DNA of 64,000 bases from a virus, in IMG/VR virus record IMGVR_UViG_3300049027_000140, positions 34,116-98,115 of that record; one strand, 5' to 3'. Numbering within the stretch: position 1 is the stretch's first letter; the number at the start of each line of letters is the position of its first letter. Shown in pieces: positions 26,509 to 59,794 of the stretch. The position numbers were made by a program, and so were the translations under genes. Under the pieces are notes generated by a model. That model was not told the DNA's origin, ran no database searches, and worked only from the letters and a program-made list of their open reading frames with translations.

Positions 26509-27222
26509 TCAGCCCGGGAACGAGCGGTAGACGCCCGTCATCCGGTGGGCGTACTGGTCCGGCGTTTCGGTGAACCACACGAGTTCGCCGAGCTTGAGCG
26601 CGGCGTCGTATGGGCGGCCTGCGTCGAAGAGGGGCAGCGCGTCCTCGTAGGTCTTCGACATCACGCGCCAGTAGTCCGCCGAGCCGGCCTGCGGCGTCCC
26701 GTGCGCGCGAAACAGCATGTCGCGCCACTCCCACCGATCCGGGTTCTGCTCGATGCGCTCCTGGACGCGGATGACGTACACCGAGCCCTGCCAGCGGAAG
26801 CCAGTGATGTTGCCGAAGTTGTTGCAGTAGACGTGTTGCCCGCGGCCGTTCTCGAGCGCCACGTGGGCCCAGGCGACGGCGAGGCGCGACCGTGTCGGCT
26901 GCGCACCGAAGACCGCTTCGTGGCCCCGGGCGAGAGCGTTGGCGAGGCCGACCTCGGAGAGCGGCGTATGCACCTTCTCGACACGGCGGCGCTCGGCCTG
27001 CGGCGGCGTCGCCTCGTCGGCGAGCTCGGCTCGGGTCTGCGGCCCGACGATGCCGTCGGCGTGGAGGCCGCGGGCTGCCTGGAAGGCGCGCGCGGCGGCC
27101 TCGGTCTTGCGGCCGAAGATGCCGTCGCTCGGACCAGGGTCGTGCCCGCGGGCGCGGAGGAGGTCCTGGACGGCGGCGACGTCCGCGCCGGAGGAGTCAC
27201 GGCGAAGGATGCGCGGCCTCAC
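26509..27222 (-). CDS. Endolysin 2: PG-binding domain plus GH73/FlgJ-like glucosaminidase
   Basis: DGIFGRKT..FQ..GL.ADGIVGPQT; ALENG.G..NNFGNI; FRAH..; WFT....Y. Confidence 0.82.
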   Translation of the reverse strand: MRPRILRRDSSGADVAAVQDLLRARGHDPGPSDGIFGRKTEAAARAFQAARGLHADGIVGPQTRAELADEATPPQAERRRVEKVHTPLSEVGLANALARGHEAVFGAQPTRSRLAVAWAHVALENGRGQHVYCNNFGNITGFRWQGSVYVIRVQERIEQNPDRWEWRDMLFRAHGTPQAGSADYWRVMSKTYEDALPLFDAGRPYDAALKLGELVWFTETPDQYAHRMTGVYRSFPG

Positions 27223-28055
27223 GCGGCCCCCTTCTGCCGCAGCGCGCAGTTCGGCGGGCACGTCCGGTGGCACGCTCCCGCGGGCGCGCCCTCCTTCTCG
27301 GCCAACCGGTGGCGAGCCTTCTCGAGCGCCCCGTTGAGGCGCGTGCGGTCCGCCTCCACCGTGTCGATCGCGTAGAGCAGATCCCGGAACTCGGCCTCGT
27401 GGTGCTCGTGCGGGACCTCGAGACGAGCCTGGATCACACGGGCCCACGTCTCCCCGTCGTGTGTCGCGTGCAGGTGCGCGGTCAGCGCGAGGACGACGGA
27501 CTCGAGCGCGGCTACCTCGCGAGAGACACGGCGGGTCAATGCGTCGAAGCTGCGACCCCCGCGCTTGAACGAGATGGCCGCCGGGAAGAAGTCCCGGATG
27601 TCGCGCTCGGGAATCCGCGTAGCCCTGACCGTCGGCGTGCGGCCGGGTCCCGTGCGGACGAGACCGAACATCGCCTCGATCTCCCACAGCCCGAAGTCCT
27701 CGGTGTGCGAGATGCACACCCGATCGAAGCGCTCGGTGAAGCGCGCGGCCTCCTGAAGACCCGTTGCGATCTTGACCACCGCGTCGCCCAGAAACCGCCA
27801 CTCCCTGAACTGGGCCATGTACTGGCCAGGCACCTCGCCGTCGTAGAGGTCGTGGCTGATCTGGACGAGTTCAGCCCGATCCCCCTCTGTGGCAGCGATC
27901 ATGATGGCACGCCGCCCGGGGTGCTCGATGCGCCAGAAGGCGGCGCGAACGAGGATCTCCCGCTTCCGACGGCTGCGCTCGCCTTCGAGCATGAGGCATT
28001 CCTCGTCCCCCTCCACGAAGCGCGCCTCGAAGCTCTCGAGCGTGGCGTCGGTCAT
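27219..28055 (-). CDS. Degenerate Terminase_6-like ATPase-domain protein with helical C-terminus
   Basis: Motif order of a terminase ATPase (EHPG.RAI..T, S.DLY, W.F, FD, VRAT..P) with Walker A/B degraded; coupled to both endolysins. Confidence 0.6.
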   Translation of the reverse strand: MTDATLESFEARFVEGDEECLMLEGERSRRKREILVRAAFWRIEHPGRRAIMIAATEGDRAELVQISHDLYDGEVPGQYMAQFREWRFLGDAVVKIATGLQEAARFTERFDRVCISHTEDFGLWEIEAMFGLVRTGPGRTPTVRATRIPERDIRDFFPAAISFKRGGRSFDALTRRVSREVAALESVVLALTAHLHATHDGETWARVIQARLEVPHEHHEAEFRDLLYAIDTVEADRTRLNGALEKARHRLAEKEGAPAGACHRTCPPNCALRQKGAA

Positions 28056-29470
28056 CCGTCGAGCCATCCAGCGCCGCGGAATTTCGGGTCCCGGAGATCA
28101 CGATCCATCTCGGCCACGCGGTCACCCTTCGCTCCGCTGTTGCCCTCGACCGTTTTGACCTTCGTGCCGCTGACGGTCCGGCGCTTGATGCCGACGTGGC
28201 CGCGCCAATCGTCGCGCGTCGTGCGGTCCCAGAATATGAGCATCCCGTCGCGGAGTTTGAGCGGGTCCTTGAGCAGATCGTCGGCGTCGATGAAGCGCCC
28301 GGCGCGCCGGAACTGCGCCTCGAGCGTCTTCGCGCCCGCGCTCCCGATGACGGGCGCCACGGTACCAATCGCCTCTGCCGCGTCGAGGATCCACGAACTC
28401 GCCGTGACGGAGCACCAGTCAGCAGGCGGCTCGATGTCGAAGCGGCGGAGATATTGCCCGATGCGCTCGCCGTCGTTGGGCCGCTCCTCGCAGACGCCGG
28501 CCTCGAGGTCGGCCACGGCGCGCGCGAGCGCGGCGGCCGCGAGTCCATCGGGCGGCGCCGCCGGCTGCGGCCGAGGCCGCACCATCTCCGCGGCGGCCCG
28601 CGTCTTCGGCCCGACCACACCGTCGGCCTTGAGGTGTGCGTCGCCCTGGAACTCCTTCGTGGCGCGCTCGACCAGCGGCCCGAACGCGCCATCAGGCGCG
28701 CCGGGGTCGTAGCCCAGGGCGATCAGGCGCTCCTGCCAGGCGAGAACGTCGGGCCCCTTCGCGCCGCGCTTGAGCGCCCGCGGCGGCTCGCGCTCGGTCG
28801 AGGGTGGCTCCGGCGTGTCGCGGCTCTCGGTCGGCGCTGCGCCCCCGCTCGCCATGGCGTCCGCCGCGAACGTGGGCCCCCACCCATCGCGCGCGGCGAC
28901 GTGCTCGGCCTTGTCGTCTGTCGCGACGTTGTGCGCGCGCACGAGAAAGCGCCCGCCCTGCCCACCGGCGAGCTTCAGGACCTCCTCGGCGACCTTCGTC
29001 GTGCTCGCTACGTTGCCGTAGGTCCGGACGTCCGTGTGCCCGATCCAGAGCGTCGAGCGCCCCGCCTTCGCCTCACGCGCCCAGTCGACCAGCCACTGCA
29101 CGCCCGCGTCGCTCGCGGTGTTGTCGCGGTCCAGCGTCGTGTGCCCGCCGTCGAGCAGCACGAGGCCGGCGAGCTCGGCGCGGTCGGCCGGCCGCATGGC
29201 GCGTGCGAGGGCGTAGGAGCCCGACCAGCAGACGAGCCACGTCGAGGCGTAGCCCTGCCGCGGCGGCTTGTACTTCGCGAGAAGGCCGGGTAGCACGCGG
29301 CCGTTCTGGAGGCAGGCGTGGGCCAGCGCGTCGTAGGCGGCGCTCATGCCGGCGTACGGCGAGCGGATCGGCACGACGTCCACGTCGAGACCACGAGCCG
29401 CGGCGGCAGCGCCGAACATGGGCGCGACGTCCGGCGTGGCGTGCGCGAGGAGGATGAGGTGGTGGCTCAC
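28052..29470 (-). CDS. Endolysin 1: alpha/beta-hydrolase-like domain, PG-binding domain and CHAP amidase
   Basis: LVCWSGSY..GLVLLDGGH; DGAFGP..FQ..L.ADGVVGPKT; DWCSVTASSW..GHVGI..TVEGN. Confidence 0.82.
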   Translation of the reverse strand: MSHHLILLAHATPDVAPMFGAAAAARGLDVDVVPIRSPYAGMSAAYDALAHACLQNGRVLPGLLAKYKPPRQGYASTWLVCWSGSYALARAMRPADRAELAGLVLLDGGHTTLDRDNTASDAGVQWLVDWAREAKAGRSTLWIGHTDVRTYGNVASTTKVAEEVLKLAGGQGGRFLVRAHNVATDDKAEHVAARDGWGPTFAADAMASGGAAPTESRDTPEPPSTEREPPRALKRGAKGPDVLAWQERLIALGYDPGAPDGAFGPLVERATKEFQGDAHLKADGVVGPKTRAAAEMVRPRPQPAAPPDGLAAAALARAVADLEAGVCEERPNDGERIGQYLRRFDIEPPADWCSVTASSWILDAAEAIGTVAPVIGSAGAKTLEAQFRRAGRFIDADDLLKDPLKLRDGMLIFWDRTTRDDWRGHVGIKRRTVSGTKVKTVEGNSGAKGDRVAEMDRDLRDPKFRGAGWLDG

Positions 29471-29802
29471 GGGGTGGCTCTTGGCGGCGGGATGGTCAGC
29501 GCGTCCGGCTCGGTCGGGTCGGGGTCCGGCGGCTCCTCGCCACGCAGGGCGGTGCCAGGGAGCGGCCGCGAGGGAGCGCTCGCTCCCGGCGTAGCTCGGC
29601 TGAGCCGCTCGTCGATGCCGGCGTGGCCCCGCGCCGTGATGTCGGCGTCGGCGCGCTTGGGGAAGTTGTCCGTCCTGCGCGGCGTGGGCGTGGCCGGTTT
29701 CGGGGTCGGCTTGGCGGCCACGCGGTTCACGAGGAAGGCGCCGATCGCGGCGACAGCGACCTCGGCGAGGAGCGTGCCCAGTTTGTCCCAGGGGAACTTC
29801 AC
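29467..29802 (-). CDS. Small membrane-anchored Pro-rich protein (lysis cassette)
   Basis: N-terminal hydrophobic helix; GTGA coupling. Confidence 0.5.
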   Translation of the reverse strand: MKFPWDKLGTLLAEVAVAAIGAFLVNRVAAKPTPKPATPTPRRTDNFPKRADADITARGHAGIDERLSRATPGASAPSRPLPGTALRGEEPPDPDPTEPDALTIPPPRATP

Positions 29803-30305
29803 GAGCAGGCCTCCATTGCGCCCTGGTTGGGCGTGATGGCGGCTTGCCGCGGCGCTGGCGCCCGCGGCTGCCCGAGCGTCTCGATGGCGCGCCAGAGGTC
29901 CTCGCTCGCGATCGCGAGGCGGACGACGGCCTGCCCGAGCACCAGCGCGTTGGGCCGGCGCCCTGCTGCGACGGCGGCGCGCGCGGTCTCCGCGGTGGCC
30001 TTCGCGACGAAATAGGCGGCCTTGATCGCGTCGTAGGCGTCCCAGGCTGGCAGGTAGCGGGCGTGGAGTTCGGCGATCTGGCGGTGGCCCGTCGCGGCAT
30101 CCGGCGCGGTCGCCTCGATCCGCTCGCGCTCGGCGTCGTGCATCGCCTTGAGCACGCGGTGCCCCTCGGTGATGGCCACGGCGGCGGCGTCCAGTGCGTC
30201 GTCCACGTCGGCGAAGGCGTCGGCGGTCTGCGCCTGGCTCTGGCTGCCGGCGCACCCCGAGAGCAGCGCCAGCGCGAACACGGCGAGCAGGACGAGCGCC
30301 TTCAC
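29799..30305 (-). CDS. Lipoprotein, spanin candidate
   Basis: MKALVLLAVFALALLSGC lipobox; helical body; within lysis cassette. Confidence 0.65.
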   Translation of the reverse strand: MKALVLLAVFALALLSGCAGSQSQAQTADAFADVDDALDAAAVAITEGHRVLKAMHDAERERIEATAPDAATGHRQIAELHARYLPAWDAYDAIKAAYFVAKATAETARAAVAAGRRPNALVLGQAVVRLAIASEDLWRAIETLGQPRAPAPRQAAITPNQGAMEACS

Positions 30306-30724
30306 CGCGGCTCCTTGCCGGGCAAGGACATCGCCACCGGAGGCGCCTCCGGGATCGTGTCCTGCGGCGCGCCAGGCTCCAGCGAGAGCGGCACGTCGAG
30401 TTCGGGGATGGGCGACGGCGCGGCGGCGGGTGGCACCGCGGGCGCGTTCGCCTTCGCCGCCTCCGCCTGCGCGAGCATCGCTCGGACGTCAGCGACCGCC
30501 TTCGCCAGGTTCTTGAGCTCGGCGATGAAGCGCACGTGGTCTCCGGAGAAGAACGCGGCGAGCGCCCCGCATACGGCGCCGACAACGAGCGACCACAGCT
30601 TCACCGACGGGTGCGCGCCAGCCGCTTCCGCGACGGCGTAGGCGATGAAGCCGAACGCGCTGAAGAAGCCCAGGAGCGACGAGCGCCAGGACTGCGTGAT
30701 CGAGCCGTTGAACTTCAGGTCCAT
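30302..30724 (-). CDS. Two-TM holin candidate
   Basis: Two hydrophobic helices; upstream of lysins. Confidence 0.55.
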   Translation of the reverse strand: MDLKFNGSITQSWRSSLLGFFSAFGFIAYAVAEAAGAHPSVKLWSLVVGAVCGALAAFFSGDHVRFIAELKNLAKAVADVRAMLAQAEAAKANAPAVPPAAAPSPIPELDVPLSLEPGAPQDTIPEAPPVAMSLPGKEPR

Positions 30725-31242
30725 CACTTCACCCTCGGCAGCGGCATCATGGGCGCGGCCGCCGCCGACGACGCCTCCGCCGGCGGCAGGATTCCCGGCG
30801 GGCAGCAGACGCCGCTGCGGCAGCTGTCCGAGCCGTCGCTCACATCGCACGGCGTCCCGTCGGCCAGCACCGTCCAGCGGCACGTGCCGCGCCGGCCGTA
30901 CGGGTCCGGAGGGCTGTGCGGCTCCGCGAGGTCGCAGACGTCCTGGCTGCACTGGCTGCCGTCGAAGCAATCGGAGTCGTTCTCGCAGGTCGTGTGCTTC
31001 GGCGCGCGGACCTCGCAGCCGCCGGGCTCACGCGGGCCCTCCGAGGCGCCCGCAGACGTCGAGGCGACGCTCGCGGCCGCGCTCTCAGCGGTCTCCGCGG
31101 CGCCGCCAGCACCGGAGGCGCCGACGCTGGTCGAGGTGGTGGCCTCCGGCTGCGGGCCGGGCTCGGGGCGGCAGGTGGCGATCAGGGCGCACAGCGCGAG
31201 CGTCGCCGCCCCGCCGATGGGGTACAGGGTGGATCTCTGCAT
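30724..31242 (-). CDS. Exported Cys-rich protein (myxobacterial type)
   Basis: Signal-like N-terminus, Ser/Ala linker, C..DSDC.DG..CS.DVC..DGTPC. Confidence 0.6.
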   Translation of the reverse strand: MQRSTLYPIGGAATLALCALIATCRPEPGPQPEATTSTSVGASGAGGAAETAESAAASVASTSAGASEGPREPGGCEVRAPKHTTCENDSDCFDGSQCSQDVCDLAEPHSPPDPYGRRGTCRWTVLADGTPCDVSDGSDSCRSGVCCPPGILPPAEASSAAAAPMMPLPRVK

Positions 31243-31319
31243 CAGGTCTCTGTGAGGTTGGTTTCAAAGAGCGGAGGCGCGACTGGGCGAACCCGGCAGC
31301 GCCGTGCTATCGGTCGGGG

Positions 31320-31574
31320 ATGACCGAGAAAAAGGCTCAATATGCAGGAGTGCGGTGGCAGTACGCTCTGTTCGCCCAGCTGGGCGACACGATCGCGACC
31401 ACGAAGGAGCTGAATAGACTGGGCGCAGATGGCTGGGAGGCCTACGCCGTTCTGCTCGACAACAACGGTGAGCGCGTCCACTTCTTCAAGCGCCCCATCG
31501 CCATCGATCCGCCCCCGGATGGCGGCCGCGCCGCTCGTCCTGCTCCCATCGACCCGCCGCCCGATGGCGGCTGA
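31320..31574 (+). CDS. DUF4177-family protein with duplicated IDPPPDGG tail (moron)
   Basis: RWQY..ELNRLGADGWE..FFKRP; TGCTATCGG 6 nt before ATG. Confidence 0.75.
   Translation: MTEKKAQYAGVRWQYALFAQLGDTIATTKELNRLGADGWEAYAVLLDNNGERVHFFKRPIAIDPPPDGGRAARPAPIDPPPDGG
31501..31571 (+). repeat. 26-bp imperfect direct repeat encoding IDPPPDGG twice
   Basis: 31501-31526 and 31546-31571. Confidence 0.8.
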
Positions 31575-31613
31575 CCGCGCCCGCAGCGCCATGCCGTGGT
31601 AAGCCTCGGCGGC

Positions 31614-32276
31614 GTGACGCCGCTCTCCCCGCTCACTCTCATCCTCGCCGCCTGCGTCGTGCTGGCGTGGGCTCTCGCCCGCGGCTGGCGCGGACGCCCG
31701 CAGTGGCCGTTCTATCGGCCCGTGGCGCTGCTGCTCTCGTGGGCGCTCGCGACGTCTATCGCCCGTGGCGCCATCCAGCACTGGGCGCTGAACCCGGCGC
31801 GTGAGGCGATCGGGCCGGAAGCGCCGTACAGCGGCCAGGGCCACGCCTGGTACCTCGCCGAGGTGGCCATCCGGCTCTCGTGGCCCTTCGCGATCTTCGG
31901 CGCGACGCTGGCCGTGTACCTGCGGCGCCGGCCGTGGTGGCTTGTGCCAGCGTGGGCGGTCGCCGCCGCGGCGCTCTGCTGGAGCTACCCGGAGGTCCGC
32001 CGAGAGCTCCAGTGGCACCTCGAGGCCGGCGTGGCCTCCGCCTGCTGGTTGGCCTCAGCGTGGGCCGTGTGGCGCTGGTACGCGGGCGACGAGAGTGCGC
32101 CAGTGGCCTCGCACACGGCCATGATCCTCGTGCTCGCGGCCCAGCTGTCGGTGCTCGCCGTGACGCAGTGGAGCGGCAATCCGGTGGAGCACTGGACGAG
32201 CGCCCGTGTCACACACGGCGTCATGTACGCGGCCGTGCTAGTTTACCAGGCGCGGAAGTTCTGGGGGGAACGCTGA
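31614..32276 (+). CDS. Polytopic membrane protein, about 7 TM (moron)
   Basis: Multiple Trp/Ala-rich hydrophobic helices. Confidence 0.7.
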   Translation: MTPLSPLTLILAACVVLAWALARGWRGRPQWPFYRPVALLLSWALATSIARGAIQHWALNPAREAIGPEAPYSGQGHAWYLAEVAIRLSWPFAIFGATLAVYLRRRPWWLVPAWAVAAAALCWSYPEVRRELQWHLEAGVASACWLASAWAVWRWYAGDESAPVASHTAMILVLAAQLSVLAVTQWSGNPVEHWTSARVTHGVMYAAVLVYQARKFWGER

Positions 32277-32554
32277 TGGATGTACAAGCCCAGATCGCCG
32301 AACTGCTCAACACCGTCAGGATCGGAGGAGGCGTCGCGCTCGCGGTTCTCGCGGCCACGGCTGGCGCCAACTTCCTGACCTTCCGGCGGCTTCGACGACT
32401 GGAGGACCGTCAGGAGCGCCTCGTGCAATGGCAGGAGCAGCACCGGCCGGCCCTCGAGCGCCTCGCTCTGGAGCAAGACGCCTCCTCCGACCCCGCGCGC
32501 GCGGCCGCGGTGAAGCGTCCGCAGCGCGGCGGCAGCCGAGAAGCGCCGCTCTAG
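32276..32554 (+). CDS. Single-TM small protein
   Basis: TGATG coupling; one TM followed by a coiled segment. Confidence 0.55.
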   Translation: MDVQAQIAELLNTVRIGGGVALAVLAATAGANFLTFRRLRRLEDRQERLVQWQEQHRPALERLALEQDASSDPARAAAVKRPQRGGSREAPL

Positions 32555-32727
32555 CCCGGCGGCGCCGACGGCGCTGGGTCGCGGAACGGCGGCGGGCGGC
32601 GCGCAGCGAGACGCAGCAGCCCGTCGAGGCTGCGGTTCATCTTGCGGAGCTCGGCCTCGATCTCGTCGATGCCGGCCTCCTCGGGCGCGGGCGGCTCGCT
32701 GGGCACGGCAGGCTTCTCGTCCGGCAT
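32551..32727 (-). CDS. Small hypothetical protein
   Basis: TGATG coupling with upstream gene. Confidence 0.45.
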   Translation of the reverse strand: MPDEKPAVPSEPPAPEEAGIDEIEAELRKMNRSLDGLLRLAARRPPPFRDPAPSAPPG

Positions 32728-33275: not shown

Positions 33276-33312
33276 GCTGGCGGCGCCGCCGCGCGCTGGC
33301 TCGGGGTGAGGC

Positions 33313-34290: not shown

Positions 34291-34435
34291 GTGGTGTCCG
34301 GGTCCGAAATGCAGGCGGCCCGCGCTCCGGAGAGGCGGGCCGCTGGGGGGGGGCGTTGGAGGTGGAGGCTGGTTCGCCAGATACTGAACGCGCGTCACGT
34401 AGACCACGCCTGGCGGGCGTCGCTAGTCTGCGGAC

Positions 34436-35455
34436 ATGACCGGCCGCGTGATCCTCGGAACGGCGCTATTCGGGACAGTCGCCGCGTTTCTAGGTGCGGC
34501 GGTCGTCACAAGGACGCTCAGCCCCGAGCCTACCCGCAACGCCTACGTCGAGCGCGAGGTGTCGCCGCCGACCAGCGCGGCACCACCTTCGCCGCCAGCA
34601 CCCACCCAGGACCCGGCGATCGCCGTCAGCGCCACCTACGAGGCGCAGTACGCCGGTGCGAAGCCCGAAGCCCGGGCGTCCGCCGTCCGGGCGTGCATCC
34701 TGGGCTCAACGTGCCCGCAGGCGCAGCTCGACGGCATCATCGCCGCCGGCGCCCATGAGCGCGAGCGGGAGGAGCTGCGCCGGCTGAGTCACGCGTGGGG
34801 CGCGCACGTCGCGGCCAAGGGCGGCACGGACGGGGAGCAGCTCAGCGCCCTCGCTGTCACGACCGCTGCGCTTCAGCTGGAGGAGTGCGGCATCGCCGAG
34901 CTGAAGAAGCTCGACTGGACGACCCAGGGCGAGGCCGACAAGGACATCGGCGGCGCCCGCGGGAAGATGATCAACGTCTACGGCCGCGTGAACCAGATCA
35001 GGAAGGACGGCGACCTCCACTGGGGCACCATGGGCACCTCCGCCGGGTGGGTCTATTTCGTTGTAGTTGGCCTCACCAATGGCGTGGTCGCCGGGCGATC
35101 CGCGGAGATCGCCGGCATGGTGGTGCAGCGGTACAACTACGCGAACACCATGGGCGGGCTCACCGATTCGATCCTTGTCGTAGGCCGCGTCCGAGGCCAG
35201 TCTGACAACGACAAGCCGCTGCCGCCGGCGCCATCACGAAGCGCCGCGCTTGCATCGGCGCCGACGGGGCCGCGGAAGGCAACCGCGCCGCCGAGCCCTG
35301 CCGTTTCTGCGCCCCCGGCCGCGCCGGCGGCGCCTCCTCCCGAGCGACGGTCCGGCGTACTCGACGATCGCCCGCCGCCACCGCCCAAAGCCCAGGCGCA
35401 GCCCGAGGCAGCCACAGCGCCGGCAGGGGCAGCTACCGCTGCCGCTGAAAACTGA
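34436..35455 (+). CDS. Membrane-anchored protein with OB-fold-like domain (moron)
   Basis: N-terminal TM; RGKMINVYGRVNQI..YNYANT.GG..LVVG; TAGTCT 6 nt before ATG. Confidence 0.65.
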   Translation: MTGRVILGTALFGTVAAFLGAAVVTRTLSPEPTRNAYVEREVSPPTSAAPPSPPAPTQDPAIAVSATYEAQYAGAKPEARASAVRACILGSTCPQAQLDGIIAAGAHEREREELRRLSHAWGAHVAAKGGTDGEQLSALAVTTAALQLEECGIAELKKLDWTTQGEADKDIGGARGKMINVYGRVNQIRKDGDLHWGTMGTSAGWVYFVVVGLTNGVVAGRSAEIAGMVVQRYNYANTMGGLTDSILVVGRVRGQSDNDKPLPPAPSRSAALASAPTGPRKATAPPSPAVSAPPAAPAAPPPERRSGVLDDRPPPPPKAQAQPEAATAPAGAATAAAEN

Positions 35456-35532
35456 GCGCACACACGCCCACGTAACAGGCGGCCAGCGTGGCGGCCCTCG
35501 CCGCTCATGCGTATCCTGACGCCCGAGGTCCG

Positions 35533-35967
35533 ATGCTCGCCCTGCTGTTCACCCTGCTGCTCCTGGGCCCCTGCGCACCCTCCGAGGAGGAGCTCCTGTT
35601 TTGCGAAGGCTGCGCGGCGCTGGACCTTACCGAGGCGGAAGGCGGCGCAGGTGGCGACGCCGGGGCCGACCAAGGGGGCAGCGGCGGGGACCCGGGCGGG
35701 GCTGGGGGCGACGGCACGCCGCCGTGCGAGTGCGACGACGGCAACAGCTGCAACGGCGCGGAGACGTGCGCCGCCGATGGGTCCTGCGTCACGACCGGAG
35801 CACCGGTGCCGGCCGATGACCGGGATGCTTGCACCGACGATTTCTGCGACAACGGCGCGCCGGTGCACCAGGAGATCCCCATCGACGATGGGGACCCGTG
35901 CACCAAGGACTACTGCGATCACGACTTGGGGGTTCTCCACTACCCCATCGCCGCGTGCAGTGATTAG
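35533..35967 (+). CDS. Secreted Cys-rich repeat protein (CDDGxxCTxDxC repeats; moron)
   Basis: Signal peptide, Gly-rich linker, CDDGNSC, DDRDACTDDFC, DDGDPCTKDYC. Confidence 0.75.
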   Translation: MLALLFTLLLLGPCAPSEEELLFCEGCAALDLTEAEGGAGGDAGADQGGSGGDPGGAGGDGTPPCECDDGNSCNGAETCAADGSCVTTGAPVPADDRDACTDDFCDNGAPVHQEIPIDDGDPCTKDYCDHDLGVLHYPIAACSD

Positions 35968-51362: not shown

Positions 51363-51565
51363 GGGTCACCTCGACGCGGTGTCGGAGCGCTGGAGGGCGC
51401 GAGAGGTCAGCCGCGGCACCCGCCGTGTGAGGGCCATGAGGAGGGCCGCCGCGAGCTGGAGACGCGCCCAGAGCGCCACCAGGCAGACGCGTGTCGCCTC
51501 CCACCGGCCCGGCCGAGGCGGGGGCCATGGTCCACGCCCGTACCAGGCACTCCAGTCGAGCGGCA

Positions 51566-52249
51566 TCAGAGCCGGCGGAAGGCGCGCGGGTGGGCGTCCA
51601 CGTCGCGGCTGCGGAACTCGCCGGCCCGGTTGGGCTTCCAGCTCCGGGCGGCGGCGCCCTCCACGTCGAAGCCAGCCGCCTCGACGTTGTGTCGCGTGAC
51701 GGCCCAGACGTAGCCGAGCCGGGCGCGCCGCGGGGGCTCGAAGCCTTCGGCGACGGGCGCGTCGACCTTCGGCTCCGGCACGGGCGGCCTGAACTCGCGG
51801 TCGAACTCCTCGTTCTCGCCCTGCGGCGGGTAGTCGCCCGGGTCGTGGATCCACCGGTCGCCGGTGATGTGCTGCGTCTGGATCGGCCAGTTGCGGCCGA
51901 GCGCGGGGATCCAGAGCAGCGCCTGCGTCCCCTCCTCGCGGATCTCCCGCACCTCGGCGCGCACCGAGAGGTTGCCCTCGAAGTGCTCGCAGCGGAGGCG
52001 ATCGCCCACCGCGAGGCCGGGAGGCCCGTGCGGCACCTCGGCCGCCGTGGGACCGATGAGGGGCGGGCTGCTCGGGGGCAGCGCCTCGGTGGCGGCGTCG
52101 GGGGCGCCCGCCATCTCCCCCGCCGTCGGCTCCTCGAACGGCGCATCGCCGTCCGCGCCGTCATCGAACGCGTCGCCGAGGAGATCGGCGCCGCCGGTCT
52201 CGGAGGCCGAGGGTTGCCCGACGCCTCCCCTGCGATGACGGCGGCTCAT
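51566..52249 (-). CDS. Hypothetical acidic protein after capsid gene
   Basis: TGATG coupling to capsid gene. Confidence 0.55.
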   Translation of the reverse strand: MSRRHRRGGVGQPSASETGGADLLGDAFDDGADGDAPFEEPTAGEMAGAPDAATEALPPSSPPLIGPTAAEVPHGPPGLAVGDRLRCEHFEGNLSVRAEVREIREEGTQALLWIPALGRNWPIQTQHITGDRWIHDPGDYPPQGENEEFDREFRPPVPEPKVDAPVAEGFEPPRRARLGYVWAVTRHNVEAAGFDVEGAAARSWKPNRAGEFRSRDVDAHPRAFRRL

Positions 52250-53403
52250 CAGATCGGGGTGTTGATGAGGAAGGCGGTGTCGGCCGCGACGATCTTGCGA
52301 TCCTCGAAGTGGGACCGCTTGTAGGTCCAGCTACCGATCGGACCCTCCTTCGGGTCGAACCAGAGCTGCTGGAAGACGCCGTTGACGAAGCCGGGGGCGG
52401 TCGCGGCGGACGCCCCCGTGCCGGTCCAGCGGAAGGTGTAGCCGAGGCTCGCGTTGCGCTGCATCGGCGCATCCGACACGTGCGCGATGACGAAGGCGTT
52501 CCCCCAGATCCGCTCGTAGTCGGCCGTCTGGCCGATGTTCGCCGTGTCGGTGCGGGCGTCCGAGACGAGGAGGCCGTCGAGGCCGGTGATCTCGAGGAAC
52601 GCCGCCGGGCTCACGGCCCCGCGCTCGTTCATGCCGAGCATGCCCAGCAGGCCGGTGTTCAGGGCGATCTGATTCCAGACCTCGAGGCTGGTCGCCGCGA
52701 CGAGCCGCGTGTTGCCGCGCCCGGGCCACATCGCCGCCTTCGCGGTGAGGATGTTCGCCAGGATCGTGGCGGTGTCGGTGTTCCACTTATCGTCGCCGGT
52801 CAGCGTCATGACGTTGCTGGCGCTGTAGTTGTCCGGGTCGGTGACCATCTCGGCGATCTCGCGCTCGCGGTTGAGCGCAAGGTCGTGGTTCACGTCCTCC
52901 TGGAGCTGGAGGAGTTCGTTGAGCGGCTGCGGCGAGTTCAGGATGACCTGCGCCTCGACCACGCCCTTGAGCTGGTCGTCCTTGACCGAGTAGGTCGAGG
53001 TCGAGAGACGCCGGTTGATCTCGTTCGCGTCGCCGCGCTGGCCGCGCCCCTTGGTCTTCGGCTTCTGGAGGCGGTCGCGCCGCTCCCACACGTTGAACTG
53101 CGCGCTCATCGCCTCGACCGGGACGACGGGGAAGAGCTCGAGCCCGATGAGGTCCTCGGCGGCGTAGGCGATCGACAGGTTGTTGAGCACCGGGACGCCC
53201 TGCATGTCGCCGGGCGACATTTCCCTCTTCTTGAGGGCCATGTCGGTGCTCCGCTGGACGAGCGCCTTCATGCGCGGATCGCCGGCCTGGGCATCCTCGA
53301 GCATGCTCGTGAAGCCCATCTTCTTCGCTGCGTACTTGCTCGCGAGGCTGGTGCCGTCGCGGTTCGGGCCCTTGCCGGCCTTGTAGTGGACGATCGTGGA
53401 CAT
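52249..53403 (-). CDS. Major capsid protein
   Basis: LNNLSIAY..IG.ELFPVVPV, RE.EIA, IWGN, GYTF; GGAGG RBS. Confidence 0.88.
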   Translation of the reverse strand: MSTIVHYKAGKGPNRDGTSLASKYAAKKMGFTSMLEDAQAGDPRMKALVQRSTDMALKKREMSPGDMQGVPVLNNLSIAYAAEDLIGLELFPVVPVEAMSAQFNVWERRDRLQKPKTKGRGQRGDANEINRRLSTSTYSVKDDQLKGVVEAQVILNSPQPLNELLQLQEDVNHDLALNREREIAEMVTDPDNYSASNVMTLTGDDKWNTDTATILANILTAKAAMWPGRGNTRLVAATSLEVWNQIALNTGLLGMLGMNERGAVSPAAFLEITGLDGLLVSDARTDTANIGQTADYERIWGNAFVIAHVSDAPMQRNASLGYTFRWTGTGASAATAPGFVNGVFQQLWFDPKEGPIGSWTYKRSHFEDRKIVAADTAFLINTPI

Positions 53404-53494
53404 GACACCTCCGCCGTCGCGGCGGAGCCGCGCGTGCGTGTGAATCCTTGTTGGAGCTGCTGTGGAGTCGGCGACGGGTGGCCGCCGTCAGAGG

Positions 53495-53935
53495 TCAGGC
53501 GGTGGAGAGAGACGAGGGCGCGATACCGATCGCCACGAAGTCGCCGGCCACGCCGGTCGCGAGGAAGATCCCGGGGCTGTGGACGCGGGCGGCGGTGCCG
53601 TGGGCGGCCGCGTTGGTGAGGCCGTCGGTCGTGGCCACGGCGCGCGAGCCGCGCGTGGCGCCGCCGGTGCCGACGCGCGCCCACTGCACGACGCTGAAGA
53701 TATGCAGCGCGTCGAACTGCTCGCCCGCGGCGTAGGACGTGCCGGGGTCGCCCTTGGCGATGGCGAACACGACGGACGTGGCCGCCGTCGCCTCGCGCGC
53801 GTTGACGTAATCCTCGCTGCCGTTCGTGTCGGTGGCGTCGAGGACAATGGGCATGCCGGCTCGGACGGTCTGCCCGGCGGGCACGGTGTACCGGCCCCAG
53901 TCGGCGAAGTTGAGCCTGCGCTCCGGAGTATGCAT
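53495..53935 (-). CDS. Capsid decoration/cement protein (DUF2190-like)
   Basis: Small Gly/Ala/Thr-rich protein between protease and capsid genes; G.AT.G..V, AGD.V.I. Confidence 0.7.
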   Translation of the reverse strand: MHTPERRLNFADWGRYTVPAGQTVRAGMPIVLDATDTNGSEDYVNAREATAATSVVFAIAKGDPGTSYAAGEQFDALHIFSVVQWARVGTGGATRGSRAVATTDGLTNAAAHGTAARVHSPGIFLATGVAGDFVAIGIAPSSLSTA

Positions 53936-54015
53936 GGAGGTCTCCTGCACGGGGCGCAGCGGCCCCGTTCACGTGATCTGGTTGTGGTCGGGAGGTGCGA
54001 GCGCCGGGCGGCGCG

Positions 54016-55434
54016 TCAGCGGGTGAGCGAAGTGGCGGTGTTGTTCGCGGCGCGGGACTTCTGGAGCTCCGCGGTGCGCTTCTCCATCTCGGCGAACAGC
54101 GCGGCATCGTCGCCGACGCTGCTCAGCTGCTGCACCGGCGGCTTTTCGTCGGGCTTGGAGGTGTCCGGCGTGCGCTCCACGACGTCGCTCCGGAGGGCCC
54201 CGGCGGCGACGCCCTTCTGGCGGGTCTCGGCGACGTCGGCGGCGTAGCCATCGGGGTCGGTCGCGGCGCGCTTCGCGAGGCGCTGCGCCTGGGCCGGCGA
54301 GAGCTGCCACGGGTCGAGCCCCGTGAGCGGCCCGAGCTCCAGCGCGGCCTTGGCCGAGATCGCCTCGTCCGCCTTCTTCTTCTCGTCGTCGGCGCGCTTC
54401 GCGGCCGCGTCGCGCTCCTGGGTGAGCGTCGTCTTCGCGCTCTCCGCCGCGGTCGCGCGCTCCTCGGCGCTCTTCGCGCGGGTCTCCGCCTCGGCCTTGG
54501 CCTGCTCGGCGGCCTTGGCGCGCTCCTCGGATGCCTTCGCGCGGGCGGAGAGGTCCTTGTGCTCCTGGGCGAGCTGCACGACGCCCGGCGCCTCGAGCAC
54601 CATCACGCCCTTGCACTCCTCGCACTCGTGCGTGATCACGCCGCGGCGCCCGAGGTCCTCGTGCTGCTCCTGGGTGAGCTTCCTGATCTTCATGACGTTC
54701 TTCCTCATGCCGGCAGCCGCCGGGTTGTTGTTTTGACCCCGCTGGCTGCGGGCGGTCGGGATGGAGTGCACCGCGTTCTTGGCGCGCTCCTCCAGCATCT
54801 TGGACATGCGCTCTTCGGTCGACTCGATCACCAGCGCATCGGGGTTCGCCCCCATGGGGCAGATCGAGAACTCGTAGAGTTCGTTCTGGTCGCAGACCGT
54901 GCGCTCGACGCCGTTGATCGTCTCGCGAGAGACCTTGTGCGGCTTGAAGCCGACGCTGCCCGCCTTGAGCATCCCCTCAACGAGCATGTCGAAGACGATG
55001 ACCGCGAACGGGTTCTTGACGCTGAACTGCGGCGTGATCAGGAGCTGGTCGTTCTCGACGACGTGGCGCACCGACCGCCCGACGGGCAGCGTGGGGACCG
55101 CCCAGTCGTTGTTGTGCGCCCACAGGATCACGGGGTTCCTGTCGAACCGGGTGAAGATCCAGTTCTGGCGCAGCACCTCGCCGTAGGAGTCGACGGCCTC
55201 GGTGGACGCTACGTAGTCGACCTGCCGCTCTGCCTCGCGCACCGCTCGCACGTGGACCGCCCGCATGTGCAGGCCATCCGGTCCCTTCGCGGGATCTCGT
55301 CTCTTCGCGGCGCCCGCGTCGGAGGCGACGGAGAGGAGGTCGGCTCGGGTGTCGTCGTCGAGCCCTCCCGCGTTGAGGGTGAAGACGGCGATGGCGCGCG
55401 CGAGGGCGTCGAGTCTGTGCTCATGGGTCTTCAT
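54016..55434 (-). CDS. HK97-type prohead protease fused to coiled-coil scaffold
   Basis: ASTE.VDSYGE, NPVILWAH, LKAGSVGF, ELYEFS.CP.GANPDA. Confidence 0.9.
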   Translation of the reverse strand: MKTHEHRLDALARAIAVFTLNAGGLDDDTRADLLSVASDAGAAKRRDPAKGPDGLHMRAVHVRAVREAERQVDYVASTEAVDSYGEVLRQNWIFTRFDRNPVILWAHNNDWAVPTLPVGRSVRHVVENDQLLITPQFSVKNPFAVIVFDMLVEGMLKAGSVGFKPHKVSRETINGVERTVCDQNELYEFSICPMGANPDALVIESTEERMSKMLEERAKNAVHSIPTARSQRGQNNNPAAAGMRKNVMKIRKLTQEQHEDLGRRGVITHECEECKGVMVLEAPGVVQLAQEHKDLSARAKASEERAKAAEQAKAEAETRAKSAEERATAAESAKTTLTQERDAAAKRADDEKKKADEAISAKAALELGPLTGLDPWQLSPAQAQRLAKRAATDPDGYAADVAETRQKGVAAGALRSDVVERTPDTSKPDEKPPVQQLSSVGDDAALFAEMEKRTAELQKSRAANNTATSLTR

Positions 55435-55474
55435 GGTGGCTCATCGCCCGGCGCGCGGCTGGGCTGGTTGTGGT

Positions 55475-56170
55475 CTACGCGGCGCGGCCGCTCTCGAGCG
55501 GGAAGAGGCCGAGCACGCGCGAGCGGTAGAGAGGGTGGCTCGCGTAGTCCGGTCCCCATTCGCGCCGCTTCTCATCGATCCACGCGCGCGTCGCGAGGCC
55601 GTGGATGACCCTCTCGCCGGTCTGCGCGTTCGGTGTGTCCTCGCTGTTGAGGCGCATGGTCGACCAGCGCGGCTCGTGCGCGCCGTGGTGGATCTGGTGC
55701 CAGAGCGTGCCGGGCTCGGCCTTGGCGAGGCCGAACATGATGGCGCGAGCGCCGGCGTCCGTTGCCTGGTCGATCGCGCGCAGAGTCTCGTCGCTCAGAT
55801 GGTCCGCGTTGTCGACGACGATCAGCTCGGTCCTGCCGACCACTTCGAGCGGATCAGGTCTCCACCATGAGAACTCCGACGAGCAGAAATAGATCTTGCT
55901 CTCCGCGGCCCGACCCGGCAGCAGGTTCAGTACGTCGTTCACCAGAACGATGCCTGGTGACACCAGGTGCACACGTGACCATCGCGTCGCGTAGAACCAG
56001 AGCGCCGCCGCTGCTGCGGCGGTCGTCATGCCGGTCTTGTGACCGGACACGACTGCGAGCCGCGGCGCCTCGGCAGCCGCGCGCAGGACGTCCTCCTGCC
56101 CACGCCAGAGCGTGAGCCCGAGGTCCTCGCGGGCGAACTCGCTGGGAGACACGTTCGACTGGTCGCTCAT
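55475..56170 (-). CDS. Inactive TerL ATPase-domain paralogue (no nuclease domain)
   Basis: Aligns by eye to the N-terminal half of TerL (58160-59794); Walker A GHKTGMT, Walker B VVDNA. Confidence 0.85.
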   Translation of the reverse strand: MSDQSNVSPSEFAREDLGLTLWRGQEDVLRAAAEAPRLAVVSGHKTGMTTAAAAAALWFYATRWSRVHLVSPGIVLVNDVLNLLPGRAAESKIYFCSSEFSWWRPDPLEVVGRTELIVVDNADHLSDETLRAIDQATDAGARAIMFGLAKAEPGTLWHQIHHGAHEPRWSTMRLNSEDTPNAQTGERVIHGLATRAWIDEKRREWGPDYASHPLYRSRVLGLFPLESGRAA

Positions 56171-57696
56171 GACATCTCCGCGGCTCTCCGCCGCTCGCGG
56201 CGCCGCTGCGCGTCCTCGATGGCGCGCGCCTCAGCTTCGGCCTCCGCGTCGAGGTGGTCGGCGAGGTCGTCGCCTTCGAGCATCCGGACCCGTCCGGGCT
56301 CCGGGAGCGCGATGCGGGCGCCCTCGCTGGCGATCCGCATGCGAGCGATGCGCGCGCGGTCCGCCTCGGCGGGCACGAGCGCCGGGACCGGGTTGCCGAT
56401 CACGGCCTCGCCCGTCTTCGGCGTCGGCATGCCGTAGAGCTTGTAGATCCAGGGGATCGACACCGGCAGCCCGAGCCTCACGAGCCGCTCGATGGCCTGC
56501 GCGAGCGCCGCGAGGTCCACGTCGTCGCCGCCGGCGAGGTGGATGCTGGGCACTGCCGCGTCGGCGCCGAAGTTCAGCCGGACCGCAGCGGCCACGAGCT
56601 GGCGCTGGAGCACCGAGGCGATCGCGCGCGCAGCAGCGTTGCGCCGGTCGTTCTGCACCTTCCGGTGCACCTGAGCCTGCGACAGGCTCGAGCCGTCCTC
56701 CGTGGTCATCGTCTGACCGAGGACAGCCTTCGACATCTCCGCCGCGAGGAACGCCGCCAGGGAGCCGTGGGCGCCTCCGCCGTTGCTCCCCGTCTGACCG
56801 CCATTCGACTTGGCGAACACGACGTCCAGCGCCACCGTGTCCGGCAGCATCGTCGCCCCGTTGGTGACGAGGTACTGGAGCGCGTTCTCGAGCGCCGCGA
56901 TGTCCTTGTCGCTGGCGAACTCGTCCTTCTTGTACTTGCCGATCCGCCAGGGCTTCCACGCCAGCTCGGCGAGGGCGAGCCAGTCCTTGACCGTCCAGTT
57001 GCGGAACAGCGCCGCCCACGTGAGCGGCCGGATGAGGCCCTCCCGGGAGGCGATCGCGCCTGTCACGCGCGGCCTGAACTGCACGAAGCGGTTCGGGTAC
57101 TTCGTCGGCAGGTGGATGCCGCTGGTAGCCCCGAACCCGCTCACGTCGAAGTGGAGCTCCGACGTGGCCTGGTCGTAGAGGAAGCGCCGCGGCATGATCG
57201 GCTCAGCGCCGATCGGCACGAGTTCGAGGCCGCGCTTCTCCCAGATGACCTCGGCGACCGCGTGGCTGTAGGTGTAGCCACCGGCCAGGTGCGAGATCAG
57301 CGTGGAGAGGTCGTAGGCCCTGTCGCTCTCGACGCGGCTGCCGAAGCTGCGGAGGAAGGACTCGACCCAGGCGGCGATCTTGAGGTCCCGGCGCCGCGGG
57401 CTCGCCGGGACGACCTGCACCTCAAGGAGCGCGAGGGCGAGTTCGAAGGTGCTGAGCACCGCGTGGAGGTGGCAGTCCTTCTGCCGGCTTTCGTCGAACA
57501 GGTCGACGAGCTGCCAGAGGTGCCCCTGGTCCGCCGCGGCGAAGATGTTGCTGACGGCGCGGGGGGTCAGCTCGCCGCCGATGCGGCCCGGGTTAAACCA
57601 GAGCGGCAGTTCGTCGACGACGCCGACGCGCTCCGTCATCGCTCGCCGCCCGACGGCACGGGCGAGCATGCCGCTCAGGGAGGCGAAGATGCCCAC
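56167..57696 (-). CDS. Portal protein (Mu gp29/DUF935 family)
   Basis: A..G.L..L.DL, KD.HL, W..LAE...KP.RIGKY, EMSKAVLGQT.TT, A.VH..V..D. Confidence 0.92.
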   Translation of the reverse strand: MGIFASLSGMLARAVGRRAMTERVGVVDELPLWFNPGRIGGELTPRAVSNIFAAADQGHLWQLVDLFDESRQKDCHLHAVLSTFELALALLEVQVVPASPRRRDLKIAAWVESFLRSFGSRVESDRAYDLSTLISHLAGGYTYSHAVAEVIWEKRGLELVPIGAEPIMPRRFLYDQATSELHFDVSGFGATSGIHLPTKYPNRFVQFRPRVTGAIASREGLIRPLTWAALFRNWTVKDWLALAELAWKPWRIGKYKKDEFASDKDIAALENALQYLVTNGATMLPDTVALDVVFAKSNGGQTGSNGGGAHGSLAAFLAAEMSKAVLGQTMTTEDGSSLSQAQVHRKVQNDRRNAAARAIASVLQRQLVAAAVRLNFGADAAVPSIHLAGGDDVDLAALAQAIERLVRLGLPVSIPWIYKLYGMPTPKTGEAVIGNPVPALVPAEADRARIARMRIASEGARIALPEPGRVRMLEGDDLADHLDAEAEAEARAIEDAQRRRERRRAAEMS

Positions 57697-57725
57697 GGGA
57701 GATCAGGAGGCCGGAACGGCCTCGA

Positions 57726-58163
57726 TCACGACCTGACGGTGTAGAACAGGTTCACCTTGACGCTGCCCGCGGTCGCGGTGTTCAGGTCCTCGCTGCTCGT
57801 GATGACGACCTTGTACGTCTCGTTCGCCAGCGGGCGCATCAGGACCGCCTCGACGCCCGCGGTCCCCGTCTTCGGGAACCCGGTCTGCCCGGCCGCGACG
57901 TTGACCGTCGTAACGATCGAGTCGTCGTCGCTGTCGCTCCCGACCTTGAGCACGTAGGTAGCGGTCGCGCCGTCGGAGAAGCCCGTGAAGCTCTCGCCGA
58001 TCGTGTGGCCGAGGTAGCGCGCGTCATCGGGCAGGACGGCGCCAAGGTCGACCTCGTGGCTCGTCACGCCCTCCGCCAGGTCGGCGAAGTCCGTGAAGGC
58101 GATCGTGACGGTGCGCTTCTGGAATGCGGCGCTGGGAACGCCTGCGGGGGTCATGCCTCTCAT
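57726..58163 (-). CDS. Jelly-roll-like virion (cement) protein
   Basis: LP..A.., F.DG..A..LKVG, TAGSV.V.L.Y pattern. Confidence 0.6.
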   Translation of the reverse strand: MRGMTPAGVPSAAFQKRTVTIAFTDFADLAEGVTSHEVDLGAVLPDDARYLGHTIGESFTGFSDGATATYVLKVGSDSDDDSIVTTVNVAAGQTGFPKTGTAGVEAVLMRPLANETYKVVITSSEDLNTATAGSVKVNLFYTVRS

Positions 58164-59794
58164 CCGAATCCTCTTCCGGGCTGGTCCGCGTAGCGGAGCG
58201 GTGTCTGCTTCTTCGGCAGGTGGACGGTGCGGCGCTTGACCACGCCGTCGAACACGGCGAGCCCGGCCCCGTCGCCATGGTCGGGGGAGCGGCCGATGCG
58301 CTTCTTGAGCTTGTCCTTGCTCTCGATCTGGACGCGGCCTACGCCGTCCAGGAAGTACTTCGGGGCGAGCAGGTCATCCTGGAGCCGCTGGTCGGGCTCG
58401 AAGCCACCGCCGGCGCGGATCCAACTCCGCACGCCCAGGCCGATCTCGGCGCGGAGGTTGACGTACTCGTCCTCGTTGCCGTCGGTCGGGCTCTCGCCGG
58501 AGTTCACCGCGATCACCTCGACGCCGCGCTTGTGCTTCAAAAAGTCGTAGGCGGAGGCGCCGATGCCGATCGCGTCGATGAGCACCAGCGGCCGCTCGAC
58601 GCCGACCACGTGCTCCTCGATGCAGGTCATCACCTCGTCGGCCACTTCCTGCCCGTCGCAGAACTTCAGCACGCGAGGCTGGAAGAGCCGTAGGCCGCGC
58701 CGCGGGTAGATGACCGTGAGATCGTCGCCGTACCTGGCGGGGTCGACGCCGATCTGGAGCCGCTCTGTCGGCTCGCGCCAGGCGCCGCGAACCACCGCGA
58801 GTTCGCCTGGGGTGCGGATGATGCCGCGCCAGTTCTTGGGGTCGTCGAGAAGCTCTCGTCGCCCGAGCAGCTGCGCGGCGAACGTGTACCAGACGCGGTG
58901 GGCCCGCTCGATGTCCTTGAGCGAGACGACCTGGTCGGCTGCCTGGAGCGGAAACTCGCCGAGGACGCGCACGCGGTACCGCGGGTCGTTCTCGTAGTCG
59001 GGGCCCCACTCCTTGCGCTTCTCTTCGATCCAGCCGAGCGTGGCCAGGCCGGGGAGGACCTTCTTGCCCGCCCGGACGTTGGGCGTCTCCTCGCTGGAGA
59101 AGCTGAAGCAGATGTAGAGGTCGCGCTTCGAGTTGAAGGCGTCGTAGAACTCGCCCGACGTCTGCGTCGGGTTGCTGAACATCAGCACGGAGGCGCCGCC
59201 GGCTCGGTTGCCGTCGATCGCCTCGAAGATCGCCGCGCCGACGCCGCTCGCCTCGTCGATGAGGTAGAGGATGTTCTCGCCGGAGATGCCGGCCATTCGC
59301 TCGGGCTGCTTCGTGCTGAAGCCGAGGACCTCGCTCTGCTGCCCTGACTCAAGGTGCTGGAGCCCGAGCTCGGGCACCTCGTGCAGGCGACCACCGAGAC
59401 CACCGAGGACCTTGAGCCGATCGGCTGCGAGCCCCCAGAGCTTGCGGATCTCCCTCCACAAGATGCTGCGGATCTGCCGCGCCGTCGGAGCCGTCATGAT
59501 GACGCGGGCGGCGGGTCGCGTGACCCACCACCACAGCGCCACGACGGCGATCACGAGGCTCTTACCGATCTTGTGGCCGCTCTTGACCGCGACGCGGACC
59601 GGCCCGCGGGAGCTCCGCGCGATGGCCTTGCAGATCCGCCGCTGGGCTCGCCAGAGCTGGACGCCGAACACGTCCCAGGCGAACCGGACCGGGTCGTTGT
59701 ACCAGCGCGCGATGAGCTGCGCGGCCAGCTCGCGGGCTTCGCCGCTGTCGCCCGGGGCCTCGGAGGCTCCGGCGTGGTCTGCTGCGGCCTGCAT
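58160..59794 (-). CDS. terL: Terminase large subunit
   Basis: Walker A SGHKIGKS, Walker B YLIDEASG, SNP motif, nuclease IGVDPARYGDD, IDAIGIGA, SPDHGD. Confidence 0.95.
   Translation of the reverse strand: MQAAADHAGASEAPGDSGEARELAAQLIARWYNDPVRFAWDVFGVQLWRAQRRICKAIARSSRGPVRVAVKSGHKIGKSLVIAVVALWWWVTRPAARVIMTAPTARQIRSILWREIRKLWGLAADRLKVLGGLGGRLHEVPELGLQHLESGQQSEVLGFSTKQPERMAGISGENILYLIDEASGVGAAIFEAIDGNRAGGASVLMFSNPTQTSGEFYDAFNSKRDLYICFSFSSEETPNVRAGKKVLPGLATLGWIEEKRKEWGPDYENDPRYRVRVLGEFPLQAADQVVSLKDIERAHRVWYTFAAQLLGRRELLDDPKNWRGIIRTPGELAVVRGAWREPTERLQIGVDPARYGDDLTVIYPRRGLRLFQPRVLKFCDGQEVADEVMTCIEEHVVGVERPLVLIDAIGIGASAYDFLKHKRGVEVIAVNSGESPTDGNEDEYVNLRAEIGLGVRSWIRAGGGFEPDQRLQDDLLAPKYFLDGVGRVQIESKDKLKKRIGRSPDHGDGAGLAVFDGVVKRRTVHLPKKQTPLRYADQPGRGFG

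Follow-up and report, generated by a model that had tools for sequence, protein, structure and literature searches.

The window analysed here (the whole stretch of DNA, 64,000 nucleotides) comprises bases 34116-98115 of the linear 98-kb IMG/VR virus contig IMGVR_UViG_3300049027_000140 and is the late half of this contig, which is about 98 kb long and derives from a soil myophage of the myxobacterium Sorangium. It encodes an active large terminase subunit (TerL) and two further proteins, called copy 1 and copy 2, each of which is homologous to the ATPase domain of TerL, lacks the nuclease domain and has lost catalytic motif residues (Table 1). Copy 1 follows the portal gene in the virion block, and copy 2 lies in the lysis cassette. 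The two are best explained as independent pseudo-enzymes that act by binding and not as the parts of a two-part system; copy 1 would bind a partner of TerL, and copy 2 would be a partner or regulator within the lysis module. A probability of about one half is given to this explanation. An initial annotation of the same DNA had put forward the two proteins as a candidate system of paired terminase decoys, one cognate and one foreign, placed in one late operon of a phage with an active TerL.

The activity of the TerL is supported by its translation. The ATPase motifs are intact (Walker A SGHKIGKS of the T4 style, Walker B LIDEAS and the coupling motif, or C-motif, SNPT), and so are the three acidic nuclease motifs GVDPARYGDD, LIDAIG and SPDHGD. 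Full-length homologues of this TerL are found in prophages of 20 of the 201 sampled genomes of the host order. The genes of TerL and of both copies are located on the minus strand and show the codon usage of coding sequences. Solved structures of TerL ATPase domains include those of P74-26 (4zni), HK97 (6z6d), T4 gp17 (2o0h, 3cpe) and Sf6 gp2 (4idh). Both copies have the ASCE ATPase-domain fold homologous to that of TerL. Unlike TerL, neither of them possesses a nuclease domain, and the residues of Walker A ([AGS]xxxxGK[ST]), Walker B (hhhhDE) and the C-motif (SNPT or TxNP) are replaced. Copy 1 additionally lacks about 40 residues of the TerL sequence; in copy 2, the C-terminus is a helical domain unrelated to TerL that contains a Cys/His motif.

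Copy 1 belongs to the PacB/phrog_2-type TerL family, which is also the family of the phage's own TerL. In BLASTP the two proteins match with an E value of 6e-33 and 32% identity over residues 9-227, and the match ends where the nuclease domain begins. The RNase H-like nuclease domain is absent, and the C-terminus of copy 1 is formed by the lid subdomain. The sole known homologue, P0005, is 62% identical and has kept the full length. The motif losses were read from an alignment (A6) of copy 1 with P0005 and 12 active TerLs of the same family. Walker A is SGHKTGMT, with the lysine replaced by methionine, and Walker B is VVDNA, with the catalytic glutamate replaced by asparagine; both substitutions are the same in P0005. 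In this pair, the C-motif SNPT is replaced by GLAK (copy 1) or GHAT, the GN of EGNRAGG is lost, and the deletion of about 40 residues removes the conserved WRExR.

The identity between copy 1 and P0005 is highest at the N-terminal segment (82%) and the lid (80%), falls to 55% in the part from Walker B to the C-motif and is 26% in the middle of the protein. In comparison with the phage's own TerL, identity reaches 58% over the lid but about 19% over the catalytic core. Among the 12 TerLs, the lid of copy 1 is nearest to that of the phage's own TerL, and its N-terminal segment is nearest to another TerL branch (L021 and L022; 57-59%). In the tree, copy 1 groups with P0005 on a long stem, and this clade does not resolve as sister to the window TerL. 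The description of copy 1 as cognate and copy 2 as foreign can thus be retained in the sense that copy 1 is of the phage's TerL family and copy 2 matches another type, but it does not imply that copy 1 is a recent duplicate of the phage's own TerL.

The start codon of copy 1 overlaps the stop codon of the portal gene (ATGA) and is preceded by GGAG. In L017, the nearest relative of the head module (TerL 43% and portal 39% identical), the protease gene directly follows the portal gene, and the 142-aa open reading frame (ORF) found in the window between TerL and portal is absent. Copy 1 is therefore regarded as an insertion, likewise the 142-aa ORF; the portal gene is flanked by these two lineage-specific insertions. 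No short frame resembling copy 1 was found in the 201 host-order genomes, in the IMG/VR viral contigs or in L017, and the matches of copy 1 among GenBank phages are genuine terminases only, at 27% identity. The gene that usually follows a Mu-type portal is the Mu F/SPP1 gp7 head-morphogenesis gene. No match to Pfam Phage_Mu_F (PF04233) was found at E ≤0.1 across the whole 98-kb contig. A replacement of Mu F by copy 1 was considered and rejected, since no gene separates portal and protease in L017.

For copy 2, no match was obtained in Pfam (hmmscan, E ≤0.01), PHROGs or NCBIfam, and pairwise BLAST against TerL was empty. The protein falls below the Pfam gathering threshold for Terminase_6N (PF03237), and its kinship is visible only from profile to profile and through the family hidden Markov model (HMM). 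Nine close homologues are 49-86% identical, and four of them are named as originating from Sorangium genomes; the strains carrying homologues are So ce388, So ce134, So ce233 and So ce1024. When the profile of these homologues was used in an exhaustive HMM search, three more distant members were added, namely P0018, P0019 and P0020 (177 aa, N-terminal domain only). The family has at least 12 full-length members, the most divergent at 34% identity. The family HMM then reaches Pfam Terminase_6N proteins with E values from 1e-5 to 7e-4, the library searched holding 1.8 billion proteins. The hhalign comparison of the copy 2 family with Terminase_6N-type TerLs gave a probability of 99.2% (E 1.4e-19, residues 2-155), although the test is partly circular, as the TerL alignment holds some proteins found by the copy 2 HMM; its first rows are two Sorangium prophage TerLs that were chosen independently. 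The terminase origin of copy 2, on which the initial annotation depended, is upheld by this profile comparison.

No match was found by hhalign between the copy 2 family and the TerL type of the window, and the comparison of the copy 2 profile (A2) with single TerL sequences was not significant, significance being reached only between profiles. In fold searches with copy 2, the TerL ATPase domains ranked first, tied with DEAD-box helicases. Nothing was matched in the PDB by a sequence search with the copy 2 profile, among GenBank phages by tblastn of copy 2, or in two scans of metagenome contigs, one with the family alignment (A3) and one with P0018. The copy 2 profile scored 12-16 bits against the TerLs of the So ce388 and So ce134 prophages and 54-98 bits against another Terminase_6N subtype. 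On account of these scores, the related Sorangium prophages were rejected as the source of a cognate Terminase_6N TerL for copy 2, which is thus foreign to those prophages too. The HMM search also returned P0022, a protein of 483 aa located outside the window, in which a Terminase_6N ATPase is joined to a partial GH25 muramidase and PG_binding_1. Its interpretation as a natural terminase-lysin fusion was rejected because the junction truncates the TerL nuclease as well as GH25; the protein probably represents either a chimera of the assembly or the relic of a rearrangement.

The Walker A of copy 2 is GERSRRKR, in which the lysine is kept while the second P-loop glycine and the Ser/Thr are replaced by arginine. 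Within the family the P-loop decays stepwise: P0020 has GGGKT, P0019 has GCGKV, other members have CGKR or CGKD, and the window protein has GERSRRKR; the lysine is present throughout. Walker B is CISH; its aspartate is kept in several members (e.g., P0011, P0014, P0016 and P0017) and is replaced by serine in the window, and the position of the catalytic glutamate is occupied by histidine in nearly all members. The C-motif is RATRIP where the Terminase_6N type has RATxNP. The proposal of two independently derived dead ATPase-only mimics agrees with the homology, with the loss of motifs and nuclease and with the derivation from two TerL lineages, but it has to be corrected in that copy 2 retains the Walker A lysine.

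The place of the nuclease, for which no match was found, is taken in copy 2 by the helical C-terminal domain with the Cys/His motif. Its ARHRLAE helix and CH-x2-C-x3-C are nearly invariant in the family. The motif G-A-C-H-R-T-C-x3-C-S-L-R (27219-27260, minus strand; residues 262-270, or 266-274 in A2/A3 numbering) is invariant among the full-length members and may be a metal or redox site. When copy 2 is compared with its homologues in the So ce388 prophage (L004) and an IMG/VR contig (L006), the ratio of nonsynonymous to synonymous substitutions (dN/dS) lies at 0.16-0.22 for the N-terminal as well as the C-terminal domain, these values being approximate at dS of 0.6-1.1, and both domains are under purifying selection. 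Together with the retention of the Lys-to-Met and Glu-to-Asn changes in the P0005 homologue of copy 1, this supports the earlier suggestion that the proteins are kept for something other than catalysis.

The location of copy 2 in a lysis cassette, as originally annotated, is confirmed by domain matches, hydropathy and an alignment of the upstream lysin. In the direction from 30727 to 26509, the cassette is composed of the holin-like protein, the lipoprotein, the Pro-rich anchored protein, the lysin, copy 2 and the gp144-like endolysin. All junctions are 4-bp start/stop overlaps, including those of copy 2 with both flanking lysin genes (ATGA/GTGA type). The cassette and the genes downstream are syntenic in the prophages of So ce388 (L004) and So ce134 (L005) and in L006. 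The order lysin-copy 2-endolysin is kept in L004 and L006, and L005 is without the gp144-like endolysin. A predicted complex of copy 2 with the PG-binding/CHAP half of the upstream lysin scored 0.00, which gives no verdict either way.

The region 11300-34300 of the window, comprising the early and lysis arms, is common to the prophages of So ce388 (L004/L013) and So ce134 (L005/L016), with 40-88% protein identity, whereas their virion modules are essentially unrelated to the virion block of the window. The TerL of both prophages is of the Terminase_6N type and lies about 30-45 kb from their copy 2, and copy 1 is absent from both loci. An IMG/VR contig that has the lysis arm in common with the window likewise combines its copy 2 homologue with another head module and a Terminase_6N TerL and is without copy 1. 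The TerL type of the window is absent from So ce388 and is found 8 Mb from the prophage locus in So ce134. The sharing of the arms but not of the virion modules is clear module mosaicism in myxophages. Since copy 2 occurs with other head modules without copy 1, and copy 1 has a single known homologue, the presence of both here looks like the meeting of two separately exchangeable modules through mosaicism. No evidence for the co-inheritance of the copies was found in the genomes compared, among which the contig of P0005 was not included. The paired system is thus not supported. Neither is the common late operon: copy 2 is encoded in the minus-strand block 22426-31242 and copy 1 in the minus-strand virion block 35964-63999, and two small plus-strand islands (31350-32554 and 34436-35967) lie between these blocks.

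According to the favoured explanation, each of the two copies was built from a TerL ATPase domain and then lost catalysis, and they belong to different exchangeable modules. Copy 1 is an accessory gene that was inserted behind the portal gene, with which it is translationally coupled. In TerL structures, the N-terminal segment and the lid carry contacts between the subunits and with partners. A binding role of copy 1 is suggested because its core has decayed while these protein-contact parts are conserved; its most likely targets are those of TerL, namely the portal, the small terminase (TerS) or TerL itself, and by such binding it would modulate motor assembly. The conservation of both parts, together with the coupling to the portal gene, suggests a role in or around the packaging motor. 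Copy 2 has its fixed place between two peptidoglycan hydrolase genes and moves with the cassette among phages of different terminases, and this coupled position suggests the lysis module as its place of action. It would most likely be a non-catalytic partner within this module or a regulator of it, acting through the C-terminal helical and Cys/His domain.

Several points weigh against this explanation. The copy 1 family consists of two members, so that selection on it was judged from protein conservation alone, and the dN/dS values of copy 2 are approximate at dS near 0.8-1.0. The C-terminal domain of copy 2 and its Cys/His motif match no known domain or family of known function. Furthermore, gene position is weak evidence of function; unrelated accessory genes, anti-defence genes among them, also commonly land in lysis cassettes and head modules.

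Immune mimicry, in which the dead copies would be TerL look-alikes occupying host sensors of the Avs1-3 or Upx type or shielding TerL, is an unlikely explanation, even though Avs2, Avs3 and Upx directly bind the ATPase domain of terminases (PMC13601566). The phage proteins T4 vs.8 and Ksap2 engage Avs2 and have been suggested by the authors as possible anti-defence proteins (PMC13601566, PMC11564622). Both genes of the window are lineage-restricted accessory genes, which is the usual pattern of counter-defence genes. However, the published look-alikes trigger Avs2 and do not block it, and Avs2 recognition makes use of terminase-bound ATP and a bridging ATP. As the nucleotide-binding residues have been lost in both copies, the ATP-mediated binding mode of Avs2 is unlikely for them. 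The translational coupling to the portal or lysin genes would also be left unexplained for a decoy. A broader form of the idea regards nucleotide-free TerL-ATPase look-alikes as a general phage strategy against terminase-sensing immunity, with copies 1 and 2 binding Avs/Upx-like sensors or shielding nascent TerL without activation; the location in the lysis cassette would then ensure that copy 2 is made exactly when TerL is abundant. This generalization is distinctly unlikely.

The dead domains could alternatively enter or cap the TerL rings of competitors, satellites or the phage's own motor as dominant-negative subunits, and ring-ATPase motors are able to take up inactive subunits (PMC8589836). 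Copy 2 is of a TerL type that is not used by the phage itself but is present in myxobacterial prophages, and copy 1 retains the lid and the N-terminal segment. Such interference with packaging is nevertheless quite improbable, since the So ce388 and So ce134 prophages contain both a copy 2 homologue and a Terminase_6N TerL, and the profile scores given above do not point to any target. Copy 1 is without the Arg-bearing segment and could not donate the trans-acting residue, a loss that would also suit a poison. It is very improbable that copy 2 couples lysis to packaging by keeping TerL-like contacts (with DNA ends, portal, TerS or TerL) while its C-terminal domain holds or releases the lysins until packaging is done. 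The constant place of copy 2 between two lysin genes, each overlapped by 4 bp, and the purifying selection on both domains would agree with such a function, but the cassette with copy 2 is common to phages with unrelated head and terminase modules, which argues against a specific packaging contact, and the TerL-like domain keeps the core strands and not identifiable interaction surfaces. The loss of catalytic motifs in both proteins and the great rarity of copy 1 could finally be attributed to decaying recombination fragments without function. This is already largely refuted and hardly credible: both ORFs are intact and have coding-type codon usage, both genes are translationally coupled to their neighbours, the dN/dS of copy 2 is about 0.2 in a family of many diverged full-length members, and P0005 keeps the length and substitutions of copy 1 in spite of its divergence.

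Two published proteins are comparable with the copies. T4 vs.8 is a stand-alone TerL-ATPase-like protein in which Walker A and Walker B are retained and which was modelled with ATP in the Avs2 pocket (PMC13601566, 2026). It resembles copies 1 and 2 in being a stand-alone, nuclease-less and lineage-restricted paralogue of the TerL ATPase; unlike T4 vs.8, the copies have lost the residues for nucleotide binding and hydrolysis, the comparison being made by description and not by sequence. Ksap2 (Bas60_220) activates KpAvs2 (Bechon et al. 2024, PMC11564622) and is likewise a small phage protein of restricted taxonomic range; it is similar to the TerL ATPase domain and is sensed by a receptor of terminases. 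The opinion of the initial annotation that nothing comparable had been described therefore needs to be qualified: both proteins have been published as interacting with Avs2, but not as dead copies and not as decoys. In the literature, no description was found of dead TerL-ATPase paralogues, of a terminase-derived gene in a lysis cassette, of terminase decoys or pseudo-enzymes, or of such Sorangium phages. Particular to this case are the two TerL lineages in one genome, the new domain architecture of copy 2 and its wiring into the lysis cassette.

TerL-derived pseudo-enzymes are essentially undescribed, T4 vs.8 and Ksap2 being known only as Avs2 triggers. The genome offers two clean independent examples that differ in ancestry and gene context, the copy 2 family being hard-wired between lysin genes. 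If either protein binds an immune sensor, the packaging motor or a lysin, it would represent a new class of phage regulators or counter-defence proteins that recycle the best-conserved enzyme of phages. Should both prove to be without phenotype, the ready co-option of the TerL ATPase fold is still demonstrated. The Sorangium strains carrying copy 2 homologues make the role of copy 2 testable.

Table 1. Positions in the window of TerL, its two copies and the genes of the head module and lysis cassette
Feature	Position	Strand	Evidence
Endolysin, phiKZ gp144-like, 237 aa: N-terminal PG_binding_1, then transglycosylase-like region	26509..27222	-	Pfam E 3.5e-17
Copy 2, 278 aa: pseudo-ATPase domain (1-155), disordered linker, four-helix domain, C-terminal CH-x2-C-x3-C	27219..28055	-	
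Multidomain lysin, 472 aa	28052..29470	-	Pfam PG_binding_1 E 2.4e-16; alignment A5
111-aa protein with N-terminal membrane anchor and Pro-rich tail	29467..29802	-	conserved in L004, L005
Lipoprotein with LSGC lipobox, spanin-like candidate	29799..30305	-	sequence; conserved in L004, L005
Holin-like protein, 141 aa, two hydrophobic helices	30302..30727	-	hydropathy scan; conserved in L004
Major head protein	52249..53403	-	phrog_1005 E 3.5e-49
Prohead protease/scaffold-like protein, 472 aa	54016..55434	-	phrog_11321 E 2.5e-24; phrog_80 (head maturation protease) E 4e-16
Copy 1, stand-alone TerL ATPase domain (core and lid), 231 aa	55475..56170	-	phrog_5902 E 4.7e-8; phrog_2 E 2.1e-5
Mu-type portal, 509 aa	56167..57696	-	Pfam Portal_Mu E 2e-65; phrog_113 E 7e-69
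Beta-rich ORF between TerL and portal, 142 aa	57726..58154	-	gene call; no family match
TerL, 544 aa	58160..59794	-	phrog_2 E 1.8e-30; phrog_5902 E 8.9e-39
285-aa ORF, its end overlapping the TerL start by 1 nt	59794..60651	-	gene call

The G+C content of the window is about 70%, and homologues of its genes are contained in Sorangium chromosomes. The full stretch is present in only one sequencing run, a soil metagenome from which the DNA itself may have come, and no RNA run is listed for the locus. No GenBank phage was matched when 20 kb of the window was searched by megablast. In the codon-model gene call, a plus-strand early arm precedes the two minus-strand blocks named above. The virion block encodes, according to Pfam and PHROGs, the sheath, major head protein, protease/scaffold, Mu-type portal and TerL.

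The 285-aa ORF adjoining TerL has no match in Pfam, PHROG or NCBIfam, and its position suggests a small-terminase candidate. A further protein of 138 aa with two similar halves resembling helix-turn-helix domains is encoded upstream of the TerL block (61531-61947, minus strand). Its matches in the So ce388 prophage (L011), with 35-43% identity and E values down to 4e-14, lie close to the TerL gene, and it is among the few virion-side genes with a match there. It is therefore a candidate DNA-recognition or small-terminase-like factor.

In the lysis cassette, the gp144-like endolysin is matched by phmmer to 3bkh and 9xps over residues 4-118 (E 7e-9). The lysin upstream of copy 2 consists of an N-terminal domain of about 220 aa without family match, PG_binding_1 and a CHAP/NlpC-P60-like domain with invariant Cys353, His425 and Asn444. 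Such a Cys-His-Asn set is typical of CHAP/NlpC-P60 enzymes. The Atlas search gave for this lysin only a lead, to a cluster in which 48% of the members have CHAP. In the lysin of So ce134, the N-terminal part is swapped for another sequence, and the half with the PG-binding and CHAP domains is kept.

The lysis block is headed by a 172-aa protein (30724-31242, minus strand) whose N-terminus resembles that of secreted proteins or lipoproteins and whose C-terminal half is rich in Cys. Downstream of the lysis genes, a 648-aa protein (23760-25706, minus strand) adjoins the phrog_3758 virion structural protein. It has no family match and an unusually low first-position G+C, and it is the best-conserved gene of the arm, being 86% identical in So ce134.

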